A stretch of 63,792 nt of DNA, the filler included, from Diploschistes diacapsis (taxonomy: Eukaryota): NCBI GenBank assembly GCA_023645945.1. It is 16 parts of 16 records of this genome, joined end to end, with 100 filler letters (N's around TTAATTAATTAA, not from the genome) between each part and the next. Parts side by side here need not be neighbours in the genome. Positions count along the whole stretch, not along the records: positions 48,483 to 50,955 come from JALAIB010002191.1; 15 more parts are not named here. One strand, 5' to 3'. The notes below the pieces were generated by a model that was not told the origin of the DNA, made no database searches, and saw only the letters and a list, made by a program, of their open reading frames with translations. Shown here in pieces: positions 3,066 through 53,483 of the stretch; position 1 is the first letter of the stretch, and every line of letters starts with the position of its first letter. The position numbers and the translations under genes were made by a program.

Positions 3066-4084
3066 CTTTCCGTACGTATGAAGAGCAGCACAGAGTATAA
3101 AGGCAATATTCTGTGTTGAAAAGTAAAGAATGCCGCCACGAGAGGCGTAGTTGGATCTGCAGAGTTTTCAAAAGAAACAATGTACAAATACGAGGAAGAA
3201 GTCTTGATGGCCATTCTTTTCATAAGACGCAGAACAGGGAGATTCATTTCCAGCTGGAATGGTAAACACACGTTTTTTACGAACCGGCAGAAGTAAAGGA
3301 ATGCAGAGAGCGTAGCATGCAGGGATAGGCAGGACTCAGCAATAACTTGATCTTACAGCCATCAAAACATATAAACTCCTAGCCTCGTAGTGAATACCAA
3401 CAACTAGACAACAATGAGGAGGGCAGTTCGGGACATTTCGAGCTTCGGCTGGAAGCTTTCATAGGGCCACCTCCAAAATCCGGAATTGCATTTTAGGAGA
3501 GCGTCACTTACAAGACTTCTTCTTATTATGTTCAGTTCCAGTACTGACGCCTCTCCATTCTTCCTTTATTAGAGATCCATAAATCTGGACCATGTGTTGT
3601 CCAGGTAGTACAAGCATGTAGCACTCCTCAACATCCTCATAGTATCTGGCGTTTCAAACAGAGACTGATCTTAGATATACAATGTAGCCTTGTAAACTCA
3701 TTGAATGAAGGTAGCTTGAAAGAGTGCGCACTTCAAAGATGGAAAATGGTGAGAGCTATGGGAAAACCCTACTTAATAAGTCATCTCCTTCCATTTGATA
3801 CTCGCCACCGAGAACTCTGAACATCTTGGCCCACAGAACTATCGCCATAAGGAATTGCGAGGGCAGCTCGCAGGTCACGTAGACCAGCTCTCCAACTGTA
3901 GATATAAATCCATTCCAAAACAATCTCATAGAGAAAACAGATTGATGGTGTAAAAATTTGTGATAGCCTAGGCTTCACCGGATTCATTTAGCTGGGATTG
4001 GTTACAAGAAGTAAATTTAATAATAAGAAGTAGAATGCCAGTAAGAGACACAAGGAATGCAAAACTCCAGGATGGCAAAAAGCA

Positions 4085-4165
4085 AGTGACTACTCGGATT
4101 TGAACCGAGGACCATTCGATAAACAGTAACTGCAGTCGAACGTTCTACCCCTAAACTATAGTCAC
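4085..4165 (-). tRNA. tRNA-Cys(GCA) with a 9-nt intron
   Basis: Acceptor stem GTGACTA/TAGTCAC; D arm; anticodon stem TTCGA/TCGAA with CT-GCA-G[ttactgttt]A; T arm CTCGG-TTCAAAT-CCGAG; downstream T5 Pol III terminator. Confidence 0.93.
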
Positions 4166-4323
4166 TTTTTGTGAAAAACTTGGAATTTACGATATATAAA
4201 CCAACACATCTATCTGTTACTCTCAATTAGGTATTAGGTATGCAATGTTATGATTTTCGAATGCAAGCACCCGCCTACTTTGTCTAGTTTGGCATTAAAA
4301 GAGACGCCCAAACCAAACTTACA

Positions 4324-27726: not shown

Positions 27727-27826
27727 NNNNNNNNNNNNNNNNNNNNNNNNNNNNNNNNNNNNNNNNNNNNTTAATTAATTAANNNNNNNNNNNNNNNNNN
27801 NNNNNNNNNNNNNNNNNNNNNNNNNN

Positions 27827-30419: not shown

Positions 30420-31851
30420 TCTAAAATCATAAATAGATTTATCCGAGTTAGAACCATCAGCTAACGATAGAACATATATAGAACATACAGCTTCGGATGC
30501 GAACCTATTTATAATAAATATATACCCTGCGACACGAAGCCAGATAACCGCACAACCGAAACGAGTACCTAATATAAAGATATAAATACCTGTAAGAGCT
30601 AAAAAGATATATACACCTACGACAAAGATACCTAAGATAAATAAAAGTAGCATTCCGCGAGACATATTTGCAGCTCAGAATGACCTGAATGATAAAAGGC
30701 ATCCTTCGGAAAGAGCATTAATTCCAGCAACCACGCCGGCCTTAGACACAGACCGACGAGATCAAGTACTTATCAACGGACCAACATTAACATTTAAAGT
30801 TCACGATGTGGCATTTATTTAATATACTCAAGATACATAATTACGAGAATAATAATATAAACGTCGTAAGATTACTAAACTAATTAGACCACGCTTAGAA
30901 ATAATAAACGTTAAAGACGCATTAATTATAATTAAAATTATTATGAAGGAAATTTACGATAAACGTTATAAAACCTATTTTATAAAAATTAAAGATTTTA
31001 CGATATTACGTTTATATCGAAAATATAATTTATTTATCGTAATTAATATTAAGCTTTTCGTTTAACTTATTAGATCTTTTAAGATCTTAAAACGTATTAA
31101 TAAATTAATTTATAAATTATAACTATCGGATTATTATTATATTCACGATATTATTAATATTACGCATCTCGAACCGGTATCAGACCCAGTTAATAACCTT
31201 TATTACCGATAACCTTTACCGCCACTATTTATAACGATCGGGATCGACGAGAAATACGAAATAACATGATTATTAATTAAACGCCGGATACGTAAAGAAC
31301 GTAAATAAAATACGTAATATTTGATTCGATAATTAAGATATAATATATAGATGGTCGAGCGAGAATTGTAACGATATTTAATAGACCGGATCGCCGAGTT
31401 CGAAGCGAGATATAATACCGCCGTGGATACAAAATTATAAGAGGTATAAGATTAGGGCTATGTCTACGATAAGAAAATGGTCTTAATGATGGAGCAAAAT
31501 TGCTTTAGGGATAAGAGAAAGGAGAGTAATATCGGATGTTTTGTTAGGATGTTTTGGGGCCAAAGTTCAAGGGTTTGTCTTGTTACTTTGGTATTTGTTA
31601 TGGATATGGCTTATGGGGGCATCCACCCACTTAGCAGCTATTGTAGTAGCTATAAGGACTCGCTGCCCACCTAGCTTTTAGCAATCTATCTTCTACACAC
31701 ACTACAATTTGACTATAAACTGACAAAGTCTTTAATATATCATAATAGCTTCTTCGACGATATTTATATTTTCTCGCTAATATAGAATCCCGTCCAACGT
31801 ATTAAATATTTAGTTTTCTATTCTCTATCTTTTCTGAATCTTCTATTAGCC
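30420..31851 (+). mobile_element. RIP-degraded Ty3/Gypsy 3' end: integrase, chromodomain and probable 3' LTR from ~31445
   Basis: Pseudo-translation YDKRYK..FKILKRI.KL.YKL.L...IHDIINITHLEP..EKYEI..L..KR..YLIR; followed by a TATA-containing LTR-like segment. Confidence 0.75.
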
Positions 31852-32163
31852 TGTAAGGAACGATATGCAGTAGTGTGATAGATATGGTCATAGTATTCAT
31901 GAACTAATCTCTAGAGAAAAAAAGAGTTTTCTTTTTGAAAACTTCTTTTATGTGGGCCTGCGGCCTTGGGGCGGCATTCAGATTAAGATCCTCCGCTTAT
32001 TCGAAAAATTATTATAAACATTTATTATAGTTACTTTCTTTTTTTTTAGTTCTAAACTTTTAAAGCCGCTGTTCGCGTTATTAATCTTTTTTCGTAAAGA
32101 TCTCGATATTCTTCCGCTAATTTTATATAAAAAACGAGTAAGGATTCGCCGTTAAACGGGAAG
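31852..32163. mobile_element. LTR-like family B fragment, truncated at the TRIM
   Basis: Begins TGTAAG; aligns in reverse complement to 53170-53483 (e.g. ATAGTATTCATGAACTAATCTCTAGAGAA). Confidence 0.65.
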
Positions 32164-32768
32164 TGTAACAGCGGGGGTAGTGACTAATAGGTAGCAACTA
32201 TTCCACTGAGCCAAAAGACTGAACACAATGCTTTCAGGAACCCCGAAGCACTGTTTCCCTATTATATTATATATGGATGCGTGGCTGTGGCAGTAGGGGG
32301 ATCTGAACCCCGGTACGCACATTACGGGCGTTATAATTATCTTTTTTTCCAATAATGTTAGCTTTTAATATCTATTACGTTTCATATAGCGCCACGAGTA
32401 TATTGGATATTTTAAATCGTTTTTAATATTTACGTCATGGACTTAGAGGCGGGGTTATTTAGCCGTATGTAAAATTAACCGCATGTTTTATATAACGACG
32501 ATTTCGTAGGGTTCGTACGTTTAATCGTAGTATAACAAATTCGATGTATTATTTACGCTCGTGTTCGAATTAACGATCTAAGGAATGAAAGCATAACTAT
32601 AACAGCGGGGGTAGTGCTTAATAGGTAGCGCTATCTTACTGAACCAATAAACTAAATATAATACTTTCAGGAACCCCGAAGCACTGTTTCCCTATTATAC
32701 TATATATAGGTGCGTGGCTGTGGCAGCAGTGGGACCTGAACCCCGGTGCGCACACTACATGCGTTACA
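32164..32768 (-). mobile_element. TRIM-like miniature LTR element, copy 1 (LTRs 32164-32334 and 32598-32768)
   Basis: Two ~170-bp direct repeats with TGTAAC..GTTACA-type ends (inner ends RIP-altered) around a ~263-bp non-coding core; colinear with 49027-49633. Confidence 0.9.
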
Positions 32769-33284
32769 GCTGCGTTATGACTGATTTTGAAAGATAAAAT
32801 AATACGTGTTTTCGAGTCGTTATTTTCAATTCGCTTTTAAAAATTTACTGCTGACATAATCAATGAGCACTTTTCGGGTATGATAGATGATTGAGCTAAT
32901 AGTAATATTTNNNNNNNNNNNNNNNNNNNNNNNNNNNNNNNNNNNNNNNNNNNNTTAATTAATTAANNNNNNNNNNNNNNNNNNNNNNNNNNNNNNNNNN
33001 NNNNNNNNNNCCCCTTTTTTTTTCTCTTCTTTACGTGAGGAGGAGCGGGTGGGGTGCATGTGCCGCAGTATTTTGCTGGAAAAGAGCGAACCGATCCCGC
33101 TTTCTATAGCCGACTTTCTTCCCCCGAGGCAAAGGGGAGAGTGTGTGTGTCAAAGACTCTAAATAAACTCCGAGGCTTTTGGTATCGCGATCCCGGTCGA
33201 GGAGCTCGAGCATCCTTTTTGCCTTCCAAACATGCGTACTGTACTACAGGAGTTCGGAACCTTCCACGGAGTGACATGCACAAA

Positions 33285-39650: not shown

Positions 39651-40188
39651 CCCCAGAATCTGCCATAGTTGCACTGGGCCTGGGTTATACACGAATTTTC
39701 ATTTTCAAATCCGTATAATACTGCGTAGATCTACGTGTAGACATATAATGCGGTGTATATCGCCGATTCTACGGATTCTGCCGTCCTGGTGAAATTGAGC
39801 ATATACAGCCTCTACGAGGCGTATGTGTGCGTATACAGATATGTATACGCTTGTTACTCCAATACATCGTCAAATGAAGTTGGAATCAGCTTATTATGTT
39901 GTATTATGTTCCTTTTCACAGAGACGTTGCCACGATGGCAAGGCTATGTACCAGTATGTTTCAGATGAGAGTCAGCTATCCGGCCTCATTACTTGCTGAA
40001 AGCTTGCTATCACACAGTTTGCACAGCAGATGAACCCCAGTCATTGCATCAGAATCTTGGCACGTGTACACACTAAATCACAGTAATTCCACCACCGTGC
40101 AATGCCTTTAGTGCCTTTCAAAGCCTTCTCAAGGCGTTTTGCAAGCCCAGTAGAACGTTTCTCAGCTTTACTACTGGCAGTATGTAAG

Positions 40189-40657
40189 AACTGAGTGAAG
40201 ACCCTCTGCACCTGTGCTGCTTTCTCAGCCAGCAAATTCAGCCTTGCTTGTTTCTCCAATCACACCTGTGGCTTTTGTACTGCATTTCGCTCTGCTGTCA
40301 TTCAGCATTGGTGCACAGCACCTGAGTCCAGAACTGAGTGAAGACCCTCTTCACCTGTGCTGCTTTCTCAGCCAGCAAATTCAGCCTTGCTCGTTTCTCC
40401 AATCACACCTGTGGCTTTTGTACTGCATTTCGCTCTGCTGTCATTCAGCATTGGTGCACAACACCTGAGTCCAGAACTGAGTGTAGAGCCTCTGCACCTT
40501 TGCTGCATTCTGAGCCAGCAATTTCAGCCTTGCTACAAACCCTGAGTGAAGACCCTCTGCACCTGTGCTGCTTTCTCAGCCAGCAATTTCAGCCTTGCTC
40601 GTAACTCCAATCACACCTGTGGCTTTTGTACTGCATTTCGCTCTGCTGTCATTCATC
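40189..40657. repeat. 143-bp tandem repeat (two full copies plus partial copies, running into the gap)
   Basis: Units start at 40189, 40332, 40475 (short) and ~40541. Confidence 0.92.
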
Positions 40658-40757
40658 NNNNNNNNNNNNNNNNNNNNNNNNNNNNNNNNNNNNNNNNNNN
40701 NTTAATTAATTAANNNNNNNNNNNNNNNNNNNNNNNNNNNNNNNNNNNNNNNNNNNN

Positions 40758-42767: not shown

Positions 42768-42922
42768 GACTGAGCAAATCCAAAATATCCTTGATAGCGT
42801 TTGTGTGATATTTCATTGTTGACAGATAATATACACAAGGAACTCTGAGACGATATAAAGCATGATTTTGCTATGGATATAACCTGTTAAGTCCGAAAGG
42901 CTTAGTAGTAGATTTTTAATTA

Positions 42923-43232
42923 ACGTGTTTGACGGGGATTCCGGCCACCCCCAGATTCCGGCCACTTTTGCCAAGAAATATTTTAAATCTTCAATAATTC
43001 TTCGAAATTAATCGTTATTTATTTTTTTTCAAAATATTACTTTTTAATCAATTATCTATTATATGTAGAAAGTGCACATTGATTACGTCATCAGTTAACT
43101 TTTTTAAGCGAATTAAGAATGAAGACTCGAAAAAACGGATTTTTGAATCTTTTAAAATCTGCTGTAACCAAGCAAAAAATATTTGTTTTTGAATAGATCA
43201 TTACGAGTGGTTTTATGCGTAAAGTTTAATAA
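42923..43232 (+). mobile_element. Left end of a pogo/Fot1-like element, ~155 bp upstream of the TFG2 ATG
   Basis: TA|ACGTGTTTGACGGGGATTCCGGCCAC with a duplicated ATTCCGGCCAC; closely similar to 50478 onward. Confidence 0.8.
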
Positions 43233-46099: not shown

Positions 46100-46462
46100 T
46101 TTTGGGCAACGCATGTATTGAAGTCTAGATATCTAGAGATCTAACTAGAAGGAATAGTCTACATGTAAATTCTTATACCAATAGGATCCATTAAGCCCTA
46201 TAGACTTGCACTACTCCCGATTAGGATTAGCAAGAATCCCAGTAGGTTCAACCGAACTGAACCTGAACCTGAGGTTCAGTTAAACTTCCCAGCCATGTAT
46301 TCTACCTGCCTGCTTAATACTCCTCCACGGGCGGAACTATCGGCATGTTCATCTGATCCAGCTAGATGCCTTCTATATTAGTTTAAGTTCTTTAACGAAC
46401 ATGTCGTGTTTGACGTAATTTAATAATTTCGTTAATCCGTCGGTAATTATTTTGTTTATAAG
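46100..46462 (-). mobile_element. Copia 3' end (RNase H tail, PPT, LTR 46100-46319) interrupted by a Gypsy element
   Basis: ITDGLTK..KHDMFVKEL, then PPT GGAGGAG and TATTAAGCAGG (RIP form of TGTTGAGCAGG). Confidence 0.8.
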
Positions 46463-48382
46463 TGTTATGATCTCTATCTATACAAGGTATACACGAGTAG
46501 GATCAAGGTGGGTTTGGTCTCTGTTAGAAGAGGAGTGTGGTAGGAGAAGAAGATAGAGCAGTTATAGGTCTTAGACTGTCTTTAGAAAAAAAGTTTTCTA
46601 ATAATAGAAATAACGAATATAGATTGATCCCGAATAATAATTAAGGATATTTATAAAAATAAACACGCCTTAAACTTATGGAAGTTATGACGACGTTTTT
46701 ATATAAATCCCGTATTATTAGGTATTAGATGCCAGCCGGTTAGCGTTGCTTATCTAATAATCGCTAGATACTAGACGCTAGATAGCTGTTAGTTATCGTC
46801 TGTTAATTACGTGACCCGCGCTACCGCGATTAGTTTATATATAAAGAAGCTGGGACGTGTCAAGTAAATTATTCCGTAGTTACTTGGATCGTAATATTAT
46901 CCCTTTTTTTTAGCATTATCGGCCCGATGATTCGCCGAAGGGTCAAATATAAATATTAAATAAAAGAGAATCCCAAGTCGTGGAACAACGATGTCTTTTT
47001 TAACTCTTCGTAACCACCGTCTAGCCGACCATATCTGCCGATTTGGATTTCTTGATTCTTTTTTTTATCAAGATTGTTTTCGATTGGGTAAGGATTGTTA
47101 TAAAATATCTTTAAAATCCATCAAGTGCGTAGAATGTGTTAAGATTAATAAGAAGTATGTTAACGTTTCTTGGGATTTTATCGATCGTTTTCATTTAAAT
47201 ATACTTCGTTAGTTATAAGAAGAAGAAGAACGCGGCGAACGCTTACTTTCATAAATAATAGAAAGTTAAGTAAAGCGTCGTCGTCTTCGAAAAACTTTAG
47301 AACGCATTTAGAAACGAACGGAGGATAAGATATTCTATATATCGGAAGAAATTGTAAAAGAGGACGTTACTCGCGAAGCCGCCGGTGACTTATCGGAGGG
47401 CGAACGGCTGGACGTTGTTTCTAATGTTGCTTTCGAGGAGTCTCTTCGGTAATTTGCCTTAATATTTTCTTTTGAGATAAACTGGGAATTAGGAGATGAT
47501 GCGCTGCCGCTGGCGTAAAAGGAAGCCAACGTTTTGTCGAGTTAGTTCGTAAGTTCTGCCCGATTCTTTTTAAATTCCTTTAATTTATTTCCGTAGTTAT
47601 TTAGGTTTTCTAGTAATTTTCACGTATTTTGGTTCTCCGGGTATCCTTTTTATTTAACTAGGAACCCCCCGGGGCCACTATGTAGAATCTTCTTAACTTC
47701 GTATTCGTTTTTATTGTTAGGTTCGAAGTAAAAGGTTTCTTGTAATAGTATGTCTGGATATATTAATTCAAGATATTAGAAATAAAACATTAGGTAGATT
47801 TTAACGTCCTTTAATAACTTAAATCGATAATTAACTCGTTTAGTTTCGTTCGGTATGACGAGTTATTTATCGATAAAGAAGGGTCCGATTTTGACGTGAT
47901 CTAGTTTCTTAAAGGGTTTACGTGTCTTAAAATTATCCGTATATAAATAAACCTTATTTTCTTTTTTTAGTTAAGGATTCTTTCTTGAGATTCTAAGTCT
48001 CCTAATATTATTCAGTATCTCGTTATTAAATAATTATATATTTTAAATTTTTTTAACTTCTTTATATTTATTATTAAAGTAGTATTCGGCGTTTAATAAC
48101 AATTCAATCTAATTATTTATATTCTAATTAACGTAATACCGTAAGTACTATTCGAAAATCTAATTCATTTTTTTTATCTAACCGTTTGTTTATAGGTAAT
48201 AAACGTTTAAATACTTCAGCTTCGTGCCGAACGCTTTTATCATAGTTTTCTAATATCCTGAGATAAAGAGCTTGTTTTTATCGCTAATGATTTCTTTTAG
48301 ATATTTATGAATTTTTACAACTCGATCTATCTATATATAATGTAACTGTTTTACGTTGTAATTTTCTTTGAAAGATATATAA
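46463..48382 (-). mobile_element. RIP-degraded chromovirus (Gypsy family A): integrase, chromodomain, antisense ORF, PPT, 3' LTR 46463-46896
   Basis: Chromodomain YEVKKILHSGPGGFLVK*KGYPENQNT*K.LENL at ~47575-47705; PPT AAAAAAAAGGGATAA abuts the LTR. Confidence 0.88.
46991..47546 (+). pseudogene. Antisense ORF of the Gypsy element: Zn2Cys6-like cluster + coiled coil, RIP-damaged
   Basis: (Y)QDC-FRLGKD-C-YKISLKSIK-CVEC-VKINKK-(Y), with both Y as TAT (RIP of TGT); then an E/R-rich helix. Confidence 0.7.
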
Positions 48383-48482: not shown

Positions 48483-50131
48483 CGTTACTATTACGAGAGA
48501 CAAAAGCCTTAATCTTTTTTATTACTCTTCTATATCTCGGCGTAATAATTGTTTATTAAATAATTATATTCCGGCGTTCAGTTTAGGTTAAAAGGCGAAT
48601 ATAGATGCATCTTTTTGCGTAAATGTTCACGCCGTTATTAAATATATCGCTAAAGATGCTAGCAAAGCTAAAAAGAAGTTTAAAGCCTATTTTAAACTTT
48701 TAAAAGACGTTATCAACGGGGGCCGGCTAAATTAACTGAATCTTTTACTTTCGGCTGCATCGAAGCTGCTGAATGGTTTACTTATCGAAAGAGATTGGTC
48801 GATATAAGAGGTTTCTTATATTCTTTTAGATCTGAAGCTGGTGCAGTGCTCACGTTAATTCATTTATCTAAATATAAGATTTCTTAAACTTGCCACTTTT
48901 AATATAGAAATTCAGGAAAATTTAATAAAAAAGAAAGGATCTTCTTTAATAAAGAAATATAATAAACGTTATATTTAACGTTATCGTCGAAACGAAGATC
49001 TCGTTTAATTTAATCTATAAGATTTCTGTAACAGCGGGGGTATTGCCTAATAGGTAGCGTTATCCCACTGAGCCAAAAGACTAACCACAATGCTTTCAGT
49101 AACCCCGAAAGCACTGTTTCCCTATTACACTATATGTAGGTGCGCAGCTGTGACAGCGGGGGACCCTGTACCCCGTGCAACCATTCACGGGTGTTACAGC
49201 TATCTCTTTTTTTATAGTGCTGGCCTCTAGTACCTATCACGTCTCATATAACGTTTCGGGTATGTTAAATACTCTCAACCGTTTTTAATCTTTACGTTAT
49301 AGATTTAGAGGCGCAGATTGGTTAACCGTATATAAAGCGATTATGGCTTATTTATATATAATGAGCCCCGTAGAACCGTCCGATCCGTAACGTAATAAAT
49401 TCGGTATACGCGATGTTTAGCCTCGTGCTCGAACCAACGATTTAAGGATTAAAAGTATAACTGTAACAGCGGGGGTAATGCCTAATAAGTAACGCTATCT
49501 TATTAAGCTAAAAGATTAACTATAATGCTTTTAGGAACCCCGAAAGCACTATTTCCCTATTACACTATATATTGGTGCGCAGCTGTGGCAGCGGGGGACC
49601 CTGTACCCCGTGCGCCCACTCACGGGTTTTACAATTTCGCTCGATCGTTCGTTTAACGAAATAAAAAGATTGTAAAAATTACACGTTTAATTGAACGTAT
49701 CGTCAGTATATTTTCGTTATATAACTCTAACTTTATTAACGATAATTATAAAAAATTTTATCGATCTAAATTTATGCTTCACCATCTTTTTTAACAAAGT
49801 CCTAAAGAATTAATAGTAACTAAATGTAAAACTGAACTTCCGAGTTACGAATACGCGTATCGTTAATATATTGCGCATTTTCGTCATTCGAGAAATCCAC
49901 TGGACCTATTTAATAATGACGATAAAAGAATTAAAGATAACTTCAAAAAAACGGATATCCAATTTAATCCAGAAATTCAACCGGATTTTATCGATCTCAT
50001 TAATCGAACGAGACGTAATAATAACGACCTCGACGATAAAATTACAGATCTAGATACCCGGCCTAAAGATATAATGTATAATTAATATAAAAATTAATTA
50101 TTATTATAATAAATATTTAAAAACCGTTAAT
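48483..50131 (+). mobile_element. RIP-degraded Helitron Rep/helicase fragment hosting the TRIM and a solo LTR
   Basis: RNN.LLNNYIP..LG*KANID..C..AVIKYIAK.ASKA..ERDWS.*EV..ILL..L..CSR; after the TRIM YKKFYRSKFMLHH. Confidence 0.75.
49027..49633 (-). mobile_element. Complete 607-bp TRIM-like element, copy 2 (LTRs 49027-49198 and 49462-49633)
   Basis: TG..CA LTRs; exact 5-bp TSD ATTTC (49022-49026 and 49634-49638); PPT AAAAAAAGAGATAGC on the minus strand. Confidence 0.95.
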
Positions 50132-50322
50132 TGTTGAGCAGGCAGGCAGAATGCATGGCTGGGAAGTTCAGCTGAACCTACTGGTTTTCCTGCTAATCCT
50201 AATCGGGGGTAGTGCAAGTCTGTAGGGCTTAGTGGATCCTATTGGTATAAGAGCTTGCATGTAGATTATTCCTTCTGGTAAGACCTCTAGATATCTAGAC
50301 TCAATACATGCGTTGCCCAAAA
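50132..50322 (+). mobile_element. Copia solo LTR with TTAAT TSD
   Basis: TGTTGAGCAGG...GTTGCCCAAAA flanked by TTAAT on both sides; matches the LTR at 46100-46319. Confidence 0.85.
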
Positions 50323-50477
50323 TTAATTTTAATAAAGTATTAAAACGGGCTTTACCCAAGATTCAGATTCTGGTTCAGCCTAAACTTCTTTAATCTTTTT
50401 AACGATTAGCTTTCGACGTTATTATCGAACACTTCGGTCGCGTTTTCAACGGCGATACACCTAAACAGCTATTAATA

Positions 50478-50955
50478 ACGTGTTTCACGGGGATTCCGGC
50501 CACCCCCATATTCCGGCCACTTTTGTAAAGAAATAAGTTCAATCTTCCAAAATTCTTCGAAACTAATCGTTATTTTTTTTTCTTTTCACAATAGTACTTT
50601 TGAATCAATTATGTATCATATATAAAAAGTGCACATTGATTGCGTCATCAGTTAATATTTTTAAGCGAATTAAAAATAACGACTCAAAAGGGTGGAATTT
50701 TGAATCTTTTAAAATCTGCTTAAACCAAGCAAAAAGTATTATATTAAAATGATCTATTATGAGCTGCTTTATGCGTAGACTTCATTAAAAGTATAAAAAT
50801 AATATTTCTTCCACGTTATACAGTCGTTGTGTGGCTTTATTCTTCAAAATCCGAAAGATTTTAAATAATTTGGCCATACAATGGCTAGTTTTCGCTTAAT
50901 TTAAATTTTCTAAAATGACTGAAAAATGATAAAAAAGGTCACACAACTACAGTAT
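50478..50955 (+). mobile_element. pogo/Fot1-like element left end (same family as 42923)
   Basis: TA|ACGTGTTTCACGGGGATTCCGGCCAC; colinear with 42923-43232. Confidence 0.8.
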
Positions 50956-51055: not shown

Positions 51056-52193
51056 AATTATAGGAATAAAATAAGAGAATATTATAAACTTATTTAATTT
51101 AAAAGGATAGGAGTTTTATTCTTTAAAGATTAATTTAACTGAACCGGCGACATTACGGTTAATTTTAATAATTCTGGATCGAATTCCGAAGGTATATCTT
51201 TTTAAGTGTTCGCGTACGTTTCGGACGACTTTAAATCTAATTTCTCCGTTAAATATCTCGCTTGCGCGTCCGCACGATCTTTCGTTAATTTAAAAATCTT
51301 TCGGTTACGGTGAATGCGACGTTTACGTTAGAAACGACGATCTTTAATTTCACGAAGTTGTTTTTTTAATTTCTTTTCTTGTTTATTATTCTCGTCAATA
51401 AGCTTTTTATTCTTTTCGATCTTATTTCTTTTAGAAAGGATAGTACGTTTAATTATTTCCTATATAATAGAAACATAATCCTTCTTATTAGACTTAATAT
51501 AGCGAATATATTTTATCGAGATAGAAGGCATCTTAATATAGTCGTGAAAGAATAAATAATGGTTATAAAATAATGTATTCAGGAAACCCCGAAGACGAAT
51601 GATAAAACTTAGGCGTTTCTTTTATATCGAAGATAAAGAAGATATCGTTGTTCCACGATTTAAGATTTTTTTTTATTTAGTATTTATATTAATCCTTCGG
51701 TGCTTATCGGGCCGACAAGATTAAAGGAAAGAAATAATATTACGATCTAAAATACTAATCGATAGTATTTAATACGTAACAACTAGTCGGGCATTTCCCA
51801 ACCATTTCTTATATATAGTCCAATTAAGGTAACACGGGTCACGTAATAAATAAAAAGTCTAAAAGACCATTCTACCCGATTATAAATAAAAAAAAAGAAC
51901 GATAATTTTATTTATTTATTCATTTACTTCATTAAAAAAATTATTAGTTATATAAAAACGTCGTTATAATCTTTATAAATCTAAGACGTGTTTACTTTCA
52001 TAAATATTTCTAATTCTTACTCGGGATCAATCTATATTCGTTACTTTTATTCTTAAAGAGCCTTCTTTCTAAAGACAGTCCAAGCCTATAACTACTCTAC
52101 CTTCTTCTCCTGCTTGCACTCCTCTTCTAACAGAAACCAAACCCACCTTGATCAATACCTCGTGTCTACCTTGTAGAGATAGAGATCATAACA
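51056..52193 (+). mobile_element. Gypsy family A 3' end: antisense ORF remnant (minus strand, start ~51645), PPT 51723-51737, LTR 51738-52193
   Basis: LTR homologous to 46463-46896; upstream GTCGGCCCGATAAGCACCGAAGG and TCGTGGAACAACGAT shared with the other copy. Confidence 0.85.
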
Positions 52194-53104
52194 ATCAATC
52201 GGATTTGTTTTTTAAATCTCGTGAAGTTTTTAAACATTCCGTAGTTATTTTCTTGGTCTTTTAAGTATGCGTCGAGGTGGGGTTTTATTTATATTAATAC
52301 GCGGTCACGTATGAATTTTGCGGCGAAGACGGTTCGTTTTTTTTATTCGTTTATGATATACGGGTTTTAATAAAAGTATATTGAAAGTTAAAGTATCTAG
52401 TATTTTAGTTTTTTTCGGTTTTTATGGAACGTTATTGGCTTCATAACTTTTATAATGGGTTTTTTATACGATTTATTTTCGTCGGGTTTATTGTTATTTC
52501 CGAGATCGTCGCTTTTAATTTCCGCGATATCCGTTATTGAGATATCGGTTTTATTTGGTGGCGTTGTTGCCCTAGGTGCTCGAGATAGTACGGATTTAAT
52601 TATCGGTGGCGATCGCCCGGTTATATTATTTAAGATATTTATTTTTGAGGGTGTTTAAGTGTTATGATTTTTATCTTTATAATATAAACACGAGATATTC
52701 ATTAAGGTAAGTTTGGTCTCGTTTAGAAGAGGAGTGTAAGTAGGAAAAAAAGGTAGAATAGTTATAGATCTTAGATTATCTTTGAAAAGAATGTTTTATA
52801 ATAATAGAAGTAACGAATATAGATTGATCCCGAGTAATGATTAAGAATGTTTATGAAAGTAAATACGTTAGGATTTATAGAAGTTATGGCGACGTTTTTA
52901 TGTATAAATCAGAATATTCGCGGTTTTGATAAACGCAGCGAGCGTTAACGCTGGTATTAGTTAAAACGATCGCCCGCGTAAATACCAGCGATAGCTGTTG
53001 TCACTTTTAGCGCTCATATGATCTGTACCACGCTGATTGGTCTATATACAAGGAATGGCTGGGAAGCGCTGTTGCGTGCCAAGCGCGATGCTTGGATCGT
53101 AACA
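52194..53104 (-). mobile_element. Gypsy family A 5' LTR (52660-53104) and gag fragment, interrupted by the oppositely oriented relative
   Basis: LTR TGTTACGATCC..CATAACA; gag-like KP.TFH.NRKKL..IL.L..YF..KRTVFAAKFIRDR..IKPHLDAYL. Confidence 0.8.
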
Positions 53105-53483
53105 GTTTTACGCGTTAAAGAACCGATATCGGCCCGTATATCAATTAATCGGAATCGTGTCAATAAATTTCTCGTTTTACGGCGAATACGTGTTCGTTAT
53201 TTTTCCGCGGGGTTAACGGAAATACATCGGGATTTTTATAAAAGTTTTTAAATAAACGTGAATAACGGCTCTAAAGGTTTAAAACTAAAAAAAAAAGAAA
53301 TAATTATAATAGATAATTATAATAATCCTCCGGGCGAACGAAAGAACTCAATTTTAGCGCCGGGCTAAGGCCGTAAGTCTATATAAGAGAAGTTTTTATA
53401 GAGGGATATCCTCTTTTCTTCTCTAGAGATTAGTTCATGAATACTATAACCATTACTAACACTACTGCATTTCATCCTTTACA
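53105..53483. mobile_element. LTR-like family B fragment
   Basis: Reverse-complement match to 31852-32160; ends ..CCTTTACA. Confidence 0.65.

Follow-up and report, generated by a model that had tools for sequence, protein, structure and literature searches.

A decayed TRIM-type miniature LTR element, perhaps self-primed in the manner of Tf1, in a RIP-affected lichen-type ascomycete genome

How might a retroelement prime reverse transcription when it codes for no protein and shows no TGG-type tRNA site beside its long terminal repeats (LTRs)? The question is raised by a 607-bp element in a 63,792-nucleotide stretch of the Diploschistes diacapsis assembly GCA_023645945.1 (the window), which consists of one 25,127-bp contig and 15 contigs of 2,466–2,499 bp concatenated via 100-nt spacers. 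An earlier note, made from the sequence of the window, had described the element as a miniature terminal-repeat retrotransposon (TRIM) of fungal type with a Tf1-type self-priming signature. The analysis reported here favors, with a probability of about 0.55, a dead TRIM-type element of a lichen-type ascomycete that has been altered by repeat-induced point mutation (RIP), is read on the minus strand, and would have been self-primed as Tf1 is.

Two copies of the element lie in the window, on separate small contigs that each have a GC content of 34% (copy 1 in the contig at 48483–50955, copy 2 in that at 30420–32910), and both have the same LTR-core-LTR layout (Table 1). Copy 1 is 607 bp long (49027–49633) and is composed of two 172-bp TG..CA LTRs and a 263-bp core, flanked by ATTTC as an exact 5-bp target-site duplication (TSD). 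Its LTRs are 87% alike, with 150 identical positions, 17 transitions, five transversions, and no gaps. Copy 2 is 605 bp long (32164–32768), and its LTRs of 172 and 171 bp are 85% alike (146 identical positions, 21 transitions, four transversions, one gap). Across the 614 columns of an alignment between the copies, identity is 75.9%. The copies differ by 103 transitions and 55 transversions, and a further 12 columns hold gaps; conservation is seen at both ends of the core and is poor in its middle. The earlier note had given this anatomy and the coordinates of copy 1, including a core without an open reading frame (ORF) and a polypurine tract (PPT) on the minus strand, and had placed a second copy at 32164–32768 together with the motifs discussed below; all of these were confirmed. 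A seeming reach of LTR similarity into the left flank of copy 1 (48952–49026) was dismissed as low-penalty alignment extension. Within each LTR, 14 nt of the terminus also recur as an internal direct repeat (in the first LTR at 49027–49040 and 49147–49160, TGTAACAGCGGGGG and TGTGACAGCGGGGG), such that on the minus strand the end of U5 recurs about 40–52 nt into U3; this repeat may be a trace of the origin of the LTR.

The differences within each LTR pair are mostly transitions, which is what RIP after insertion would give. Among the LTR differences, 56 of 86 are C>T or G>A, and 23 of those 56 fall at CpA or TpG, counts for which the reference takes C and G as ancestral in mixed columns and thereby assumes the direction of change. 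Comparison of LTRs between the copies yields 13–16 transversions per LTR, which reflect an older divergence of the family. The claim that the motifs of the two copies differ by RIP-type transitions was borne out by the LTR and core alignments. No ATG-initiated ORF of at least 25 amino acids is present inside the core of copy 1 or copy 2, and the only ORFs of that size in copy 1, of 46 and 43 amino acids, both start in LTRs. A six-frame Pfam scan found no family in the copy-1 contig, and its sole match in the contig of copy 2 is to sequence outside the element.

The setting of the two copies points the same way. The composite RIP index is above zero (0.22 to 0.63) in eight of the 16 contigs, all with a GC fraction of at most 0.36, and ranges from −0.36 to −0.84 in the remaining eight, whose GC fraction is at least 0.39. 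Among named homologs of a 620-amino-acid ORF on the 25-kb contig, the nearest, at 41% identity, is from Thelotrema lepadinum, a lichen-forming ascomycete. Among public sequencing runs, the word share of the copy-1 contig is highest in the lichen metagenome run X1 (0.57) and small in X2 (a named organism) and X3 (a rock metagenome). The runs listed included no RNA run, and a fourth run, X4, yielded no contig that aligned to the copy-1 contig. A fungal host of lichen-ascomycete type, apparently affected by RIP, is thus supported. RIP in lichen fungi is reportedly already in print.

Evidence that the element once moved came from contigs of runs X1, X2, and X3 aligned at a likeness of at least 80% to the copy-1 contig. 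In each run, a single contig joins position 49021 directly to 49634, skipping 612 bases (607 + 5) with exactly five letters in common across the joint. The X1 contig (record 2, 602 nt) spans 48629–49021 and 49634–49842 with a single ATTTC and no element; its 92 other letters mark it as a paralog of the flanking repeat that has diverged and does not carry the element. Paralogous empty sites in three runs thus establish that the 607 bp were inserted as one unit into a pre-existing repeat with duplication of 5 bp, which supports the miniature LTR retroelement of the earlier note. At 49027, 35 X2 contigs depart into sequence unlike that of the window (agreement 0.45), a pattern that indicates many other insertion sites. 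The boundaries of copy 2 can be read from its flanks. On the left, a paralog at 53483–53169 loses its match at the LTR start, and on the right, paralogs at 50716–50590 and 43159–43032 begin to match directly past the LTR end. These flanks thus belong to different repeat families. Copy 2 arose either by recombination between two insertions or as a chimeric join in the assembly; under either origin, the alignments confirm both of its LTR termini as element boundaries. The two copies are dead, RIP-mutated members of a once mobile family of TRIM-type, non-autonomous LTR retrotransposons.

The abundance of LTR and core sequence in the runs differs widely. Summed contig depth is far greater across 49027–49146 than across the core: it reaches 53,554 in X1 and 299,252 in X2 at 49064–49146, compared with 130 and 2,778, respectively, at mid-core (49313–49395), and the unique exact-match X1 contig has a depth of 31.1. 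Summed contig depth is not copy number and may take in other organisms, so it is only cautiously that LTR-like sequence is put at an abundance exceeding that of core sequence by one to two orders of magnitude. This excess is compatible with numerous solo LTRs, with other elements that have the LTR in common, or with the two together. In X2, depth at the core ends (8,207 and 20,287) exceeds the mid-core value, and 17 X2 contigs have the last 77 bp of the core in common and differ beyond it, as would be expected if a longer element had given rise, by deletion, to a derivative in which its cis-acting ends were retained. The idea that the abundant unit is 120 bp only, suggested by a drop in depth at 49147–49198, was rejected, as this region is present between the joints in a diverged, copy-2-like form. 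Pattern scans for the LTR gave no matches with two patterns in metagenome_contigs, one in genome_contigs, and one in viral_contigs.

On the minus strand, the element would be read as a 5′ LTR, a 3-nt spacer, the primer-binding site (PBS) position, about 240 nt of non-coding leader and core, the PPT, and the 3′ LTR. The 18 nt that precede the LTR on this strand contain 14 purines, including a run of 11, in both copies. The would-be 5′ U3 (plus-strand 49147–49198) is the least conserved segment among the four LTRs and also the shallowest at 80% likeness. A TATA-like run at LTR position 61–63 of this strand divides the LTR into a U3 of about 100 nt and an R-U5 of about 72 nt. In the proposed mechanism, the transcript would begin within the LTR, some 37–39 nt after the TATA-like run, at TGAAAGCAT; the 5′ end of the RNA would fold back onto the complementary ATGCTTTCA, 3 nt past the LTR; and helper RNase H would then cut to create the primer, as in Tf1-type self-priming. 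The 5-bp duplication arose on insertion.

The features expected of such a mechanism are found in part. No TGG-type tRNA site occurs within 22 nt of the LTR in any of the four combinations of copy and orientation, and the PBS shares at most 4–6 nt with the one tRNA-like gene of the window, in keeping with the prediction that no tRNA match would be found. Three nucleotides past the LTR, the minus strand of copy 2 reads ATGCTTTCA, which is the exact complement of TGAAAGCAT in the LTRs at 32164–32335 and 49027–49198. Mononucleotide shuffling of the LTR gave a 9-nt complement to the PBS in only five of 2,000 shuffles. The PBS of copy 2 pairs with the LTR next to it over 6 exact nt, or over 9 if one G.U pair is allowed. 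The mismatches between PBS and LTR are RIP-type transitions, so the ancestral family sequence probably had the 9-bp match, and the same changes account for an exact complement in only one of the six LTR/PBS comparisons. The LTR motif begins 37–39 nt after the TATA-like run in three of four LTRs, the fourth having a degenerate TATA, and in the minimum-free-energy fold of copy-2 RNA from the proposed start, the 5′ end pairs with the PBS.

A further lead is provided by variants in run X2. There, the loose ends of 31 contigs give a variant LTR motif, ATGCCATCA (agreement 0.89, median loose length 11), and on the PBS side 16 contigs have TAATAATAT (agreement 0.8) and one has TGATAATAT. A T>A change at position 6 of the LTR motif pairs with an A>T change at position 4 on the PBS side, so that the base pair is kept. 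RIP does not make transversions. A second LTR change in X2, T>C, has no visible partner, although RIP could have converted a G opposite it back into A.

Because the element makes no protein, an autonomous LTR element must have supplied it in trans with reverse transcriptase and integrase. Self-priming would then have been inherited from a Tf1/sushi-type chromovirus, as ancestor or helper. Candidate relics of such elements are present in the window: a Tf2-like integrase SH3 remnant (SH3_Tf2-1) at about 31045–31180 on the plus strand (E value 8.6e-5; 23 bits, where the cut-off is 30) and a Chromo remnant at about 47554–47886 on the minus strand (E value 7.9e-4; 19.7 bits, where the cut-off is 25.1), which was spotted by eye and then weakly confirmed. 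Both appear to be RIP-decayed 3′ ends of chromovirus-type Ty3/gypsy elements, from which it follows that chromoviruses were present in this genome. Neither remnant shares sequence with the LTR or core of the element, and a Pfam six-frame scan of four more AT-rich contigs (24 frames) found no families at E ≤ 0.001. The description of the element as a parasite of fungal chromoviruses, put forward in the earlier note, was therefore not upheld, as the decayed remains in the window include none that shares its LTR.

Several observations weigh against self-priming, and many of them favor another account of the same TRIM-type element, in which the 9-nt complement arose by chance in AT-rich, RIP-mutated DNA and the primer was an internal tRNA fragment or something else no longer recognizable. 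The complement is short, 9 nt compared with 11 nt in Tf1, and outside the single exact case the other five LTR/PBS comparisons give 5–6 nt, which is the chance level (6 exact nt between the PBS and the adjacent 5′ LTR in either copy, and 5 between the PBS of copy 1 and its 3′ LTR). Once two orientations and several comparisons are allowed for, the probability of the 9-nt match is nearer 0.01–0.02. The fold of copy-1 RNA does not pair the 5′ end with the PBS, the four folds are no more stable than those of shuffled sequences (z from −0.16 to −0.88), and since the start of the fold was chosen by the hypothesis, the pairing seen for copy 2 is a weak result. The X2 covariation, in which the second LTR change lacks a counterpart, is drawn from contigs that are not linked to one another and from consensuses of loose ends whose median length is 11–22 nt, and is thus a lead and no proof. 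The tRNA comparison covered the one tRNA of the window. An autonomous element with the same LTR ends or PBS was not found within the window. Copy 2, flanked by GGAAG and GCTGC, has no TSD, so that of the shared core and independent TSDs expected for the family, the core ends and the exact TSD of copy 1 were found and a second TSD was not. A chance origin is hard to square, on the other side, with the rarity of 9-nt matches among the shuffles, a complement that falls exactly at the PBS position, an LTR partner at a plausible distance from the TATA-like run, the lack of a TGG-type site, and a transversion in X2 that is matched between the LTR and PBS sides. The chance account is accordingly regarded as possible, if rather doubtful. 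Of the explanations at hand for the absent tRNA site, Tf1-type self-priming is the best, and we would put it at roughly even odds: the missing TGG site and the rarity of the complement speak for this part of the earlier proposal, while the single exact comparison and the shuffle-like folds speak against it.

The remaining alternatives concern promoter, strand, and assembly. Transcription of the TRIM by RNA polymerase III (Pol III), as in Helenus or other TRIMp3-like elements, would require a box A promoter in the LTR and a box-B-like site in the leader. Each copy does have, in one of its LTRs and on the minus strand, an exact match to the box A consensus, TGGCTCAGTGG, which begins 23 nt after the proposed RNA start, and GGTTCGAGCAC follows 75 nt downstream on the same strand. 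The window contains three box A matches compared with 0.65 expected, a number reached by one of 100 shuffles; the two matches in the element are homologous and thus count as one event. Fungal Helenus TRIMs with tRNA-like LTRs and 5-bp TSDs are described in passages of PMC10886601, whose statements on their hosts name Pucciniales and some Agaricomycetes, not ascomycetes. Neither ARAGORN nor Rfam (E up to 1) detects anything tRNA-like in the element, box-B-like sites with one mismatch are no more frequent in the window than chance predicts (11 found, 10.89 expected), and the site lies in the core outside the LTR, unlike that of Helenus; a Pol III element is therefore considered very improbable. 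The Rfam search of the copy-1 contig gave two weak matches, to miRNA and snoRNA models, both far below gathering scores and outside the element. A hybrid, in which a Tf1-like self-priming miniature LTR element also had a Pol III-type promoter (TATA-like run, box A, and box-B-like leader site), is a similarly long shot; if true, it would unite the transcription mode of TRIMp3 elements (Cassandra and Helenus) with tRNA-independent priming and could explain the very high summed LTR depth in lichen and rock metagenomes. If the element were read on the plus strand, AAGGAATGAAAGCATAAC, a purine-rich stretch preceding the right-hand LTR, would be the PPT, and an unconventional PBS would lie in the T-rich sequence with which the core starts. 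That PPT contains 13–14 purines in 18 nt, and the TATA-like run is palindromic and so fits either strand. Its longest purine run, however, is 5–6 nt, compared with 11 on the minus strand, R-U5 would be only about 30 nt, T7 and T5 runs occur on the plus strand, no TGG stands at the PBS position, where the longest complement is at the chance level of 6 nt, and the LTR/PBS complement would be left unexplained. The minus-strand reading, including the PPT that the earlier note had placed there, is the better supported by these features, and the plus-strand one seems most unlikely. That the structure is an artefact, either of chimeric metagenome assembly or of tandem LTR debris, is suggested by the metagenome-type contigs of about 2.5 kb that make up the window and by copy 2, whose missing TSD and flanks from two repeat families fit a chimeric join or ectopic recombination. 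The exact TSD and precise empty sites of copy 1 in three runs, an exact-match 572-nt X1 contig (record 5) spanning core, LTR, and flank, and the layout common to both copies leave this account scarcely credible as a whole; for copy 1, an assembly artefact is excluded.

The preferred reading, a dead and possibly self-primed TRIM-type element, joins two kinds of element that are already known. The statement that TRIMs occur mainly in plants and some animals, made in the earlier note, understates the literature, since fungal TRIMs are published as well, and several surveys of fungal transposable elements reportedly mention them. As defined in passages of PMC10886601, a TRIM is shorter than 1 kb, codes for no protein, and has two LTRs, a PBS, and a PPT; the same source describes Helenus as a group of fungal TRIMs with 5-bp TSDs, tRNA-like LTRs, and a tRNA-type PBS, and TRIMs serve as markers in fungi (PMC6934838). 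The present element resembles a TRIM in its length below 1 kb, two short LTRs (172 bp), non-coding core, PPT, 5-bp TSD, multiple copies, and dependence on a helper. It departs from the canonical form, whose PBS pairs with a tRNA 3′ end, in that its PBS position complements its own LTR and no TGG-type site is present. With Helenus and TRIMp3 elements it shares the fungal host, the 5-bp TSD, and an exact box A in the LTR, but it lacks a tRNA recognizable to ARAGORN or covariance models and a box B in the LTR, and the Helenus PBS is of tRNA type. As in Tf1 and Tf2 of S. pombe and Tj1 of S. japonicus, a candidate PBS just past the 5′ LTR complements an LTR stretch that is the putative RNA 5′ end. 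Passages of PMC5341516 and PMC4600332 report that Tf2 and Tj1 self-prime likewise, and in part of PMC6317226 the plant Tcn1 and TAR lineages are predicted to do so. For Tf1, published excerpts describe an 11-nt pairing, a mapped RNA start, and an RNase H cut, whereas the present element has 9 nt and a putative RNA start. The Tf1/sushi-group chromoviruses are alike in their fungal host, and decayed Tf2-like integrase SH3 and chromodomain sequences lie in the same window, but these chromoviruses are autonomous and about 5 kb long, whereas the element is non-coding and shares its LTR with no coding element in the window. In the literature searched, no report of a self-priming TRIM was found, and PMC6934838 mentions self-priming merely as a comparison. 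As fungal TRIMs and Tf1-type self-priming are both published, the element is a new family within known kinds.

The family adds a lichen-fungus member to the fungal TRIMs, and if self-priming holds, tRNA-independent priming would have been carried over into miniature non-autonomous derivatives. Short, very deep sequences such as this LTR fragment the metagenome assemblies of lichen fungi into contigs of about 2.5 kb, and they are useful markers of RIP activity and of repeat history in the mycobiont.

Table 1. Coordinates of the two element copies and of their candidate functional sites; positions are those of the window, and 5′ and 3′ LTRs are named for the minus-strand reading.
Feature	Position	Strand	Observation
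TSD ATTTC, left	49022..49026		Empty-site joints share exactly 5 letters
Copy 1 LTR (3′ LTR)	49027..49198	-	TG..CA; less RIP-mutated of the pair
Candidate PPT adjoining 3′ LTR, copy 1	49199..49216	-	14/18 purines, longest run 11
Copy 1 non-coding core, 263 bp	49199..49461	-	No ORF of at least 25 amino acids; ends conserved with copy 2
Copy 1 PBS position	49450..49458	-	Plus strand TAAAAGTAT; two RIP-type transitions from TGAAAGCAT; 3 nt from LTR
Copy 1 LTR (5′ LTR)	49462..49633	-	LTR alignment
Putative self-primer, proposed R start in LTR	49090..49098	-	Plus strand ATGCTTTCA
Homologous self-primer site, other copy 1 LTR	49526-49534	-	ATGCTTTTA
TSD ATTTC, right	49634..49638		Exact duplication, empty-site joints
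Copy 2 LTR (3′ LTR)	32164..32335	-	ATGCTTTCA at 32228-32236; left-flank paralog ends at LTR start
Copy 2 non-coding core	32336..32597	-	Candidate PPT 32336-32353; PBS-position motif TGAAAGCAT at 32586-32594
Copy 2 LTR (5′ LTR)	32598..32768	-	Motif ATACTTTCA at 32661-32669; right-flank paralogs begin after LTR end
Pol III box A consensus, exact (TGGCTCAGTGG), in LTR	49065..49075 and 32203-32213	-	Pattern match

Several other features of the window were recorded. The 15 spacers (25128–61326, e.g., 27727–27826) are runs of N flanking TTAATTAATTAA, and an apparent 45-copy direct-repeat family with a spacing of about 2.58 kb was rejected as biology, as it corresponds to these joining spacers. The sole ARAGORN call of the window is an 83-nt tRNA-Ser-like gene at 4084–4166 on the minus strand, which has the unusual anticodon ACT and may be a pseudo-tRNA or a mis-call. 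An abundant short repeat occurs at 50134–50322 and 46100–46317, about 90% alike, and its summed depth in X1 (~63,600) is level with that of the TRIM LTR; loose ends at 50132/50134 indicate that other copies reach further upstream. A third repeat family, 76–84% alike, is found at 50472–50788, 42916–43232, and 32783–32910, where it forms the right flank of TRIM copy 2, and the bin at 50475–50557 is very deep in both X1 and X2. On an AT-rich contig, 245-bp inverted repeats that are 80% alike (51949–52193 and 52660–52904) also match 46459–46709 in another contig and could be termini left by a decayed DNA transposon or foldback element. A tandem array at 40187–40680, on a contig of normal GC content, is built from a 143-bp unit (2.4 copies, 95% matches) with a 65-bp sub-repeat.

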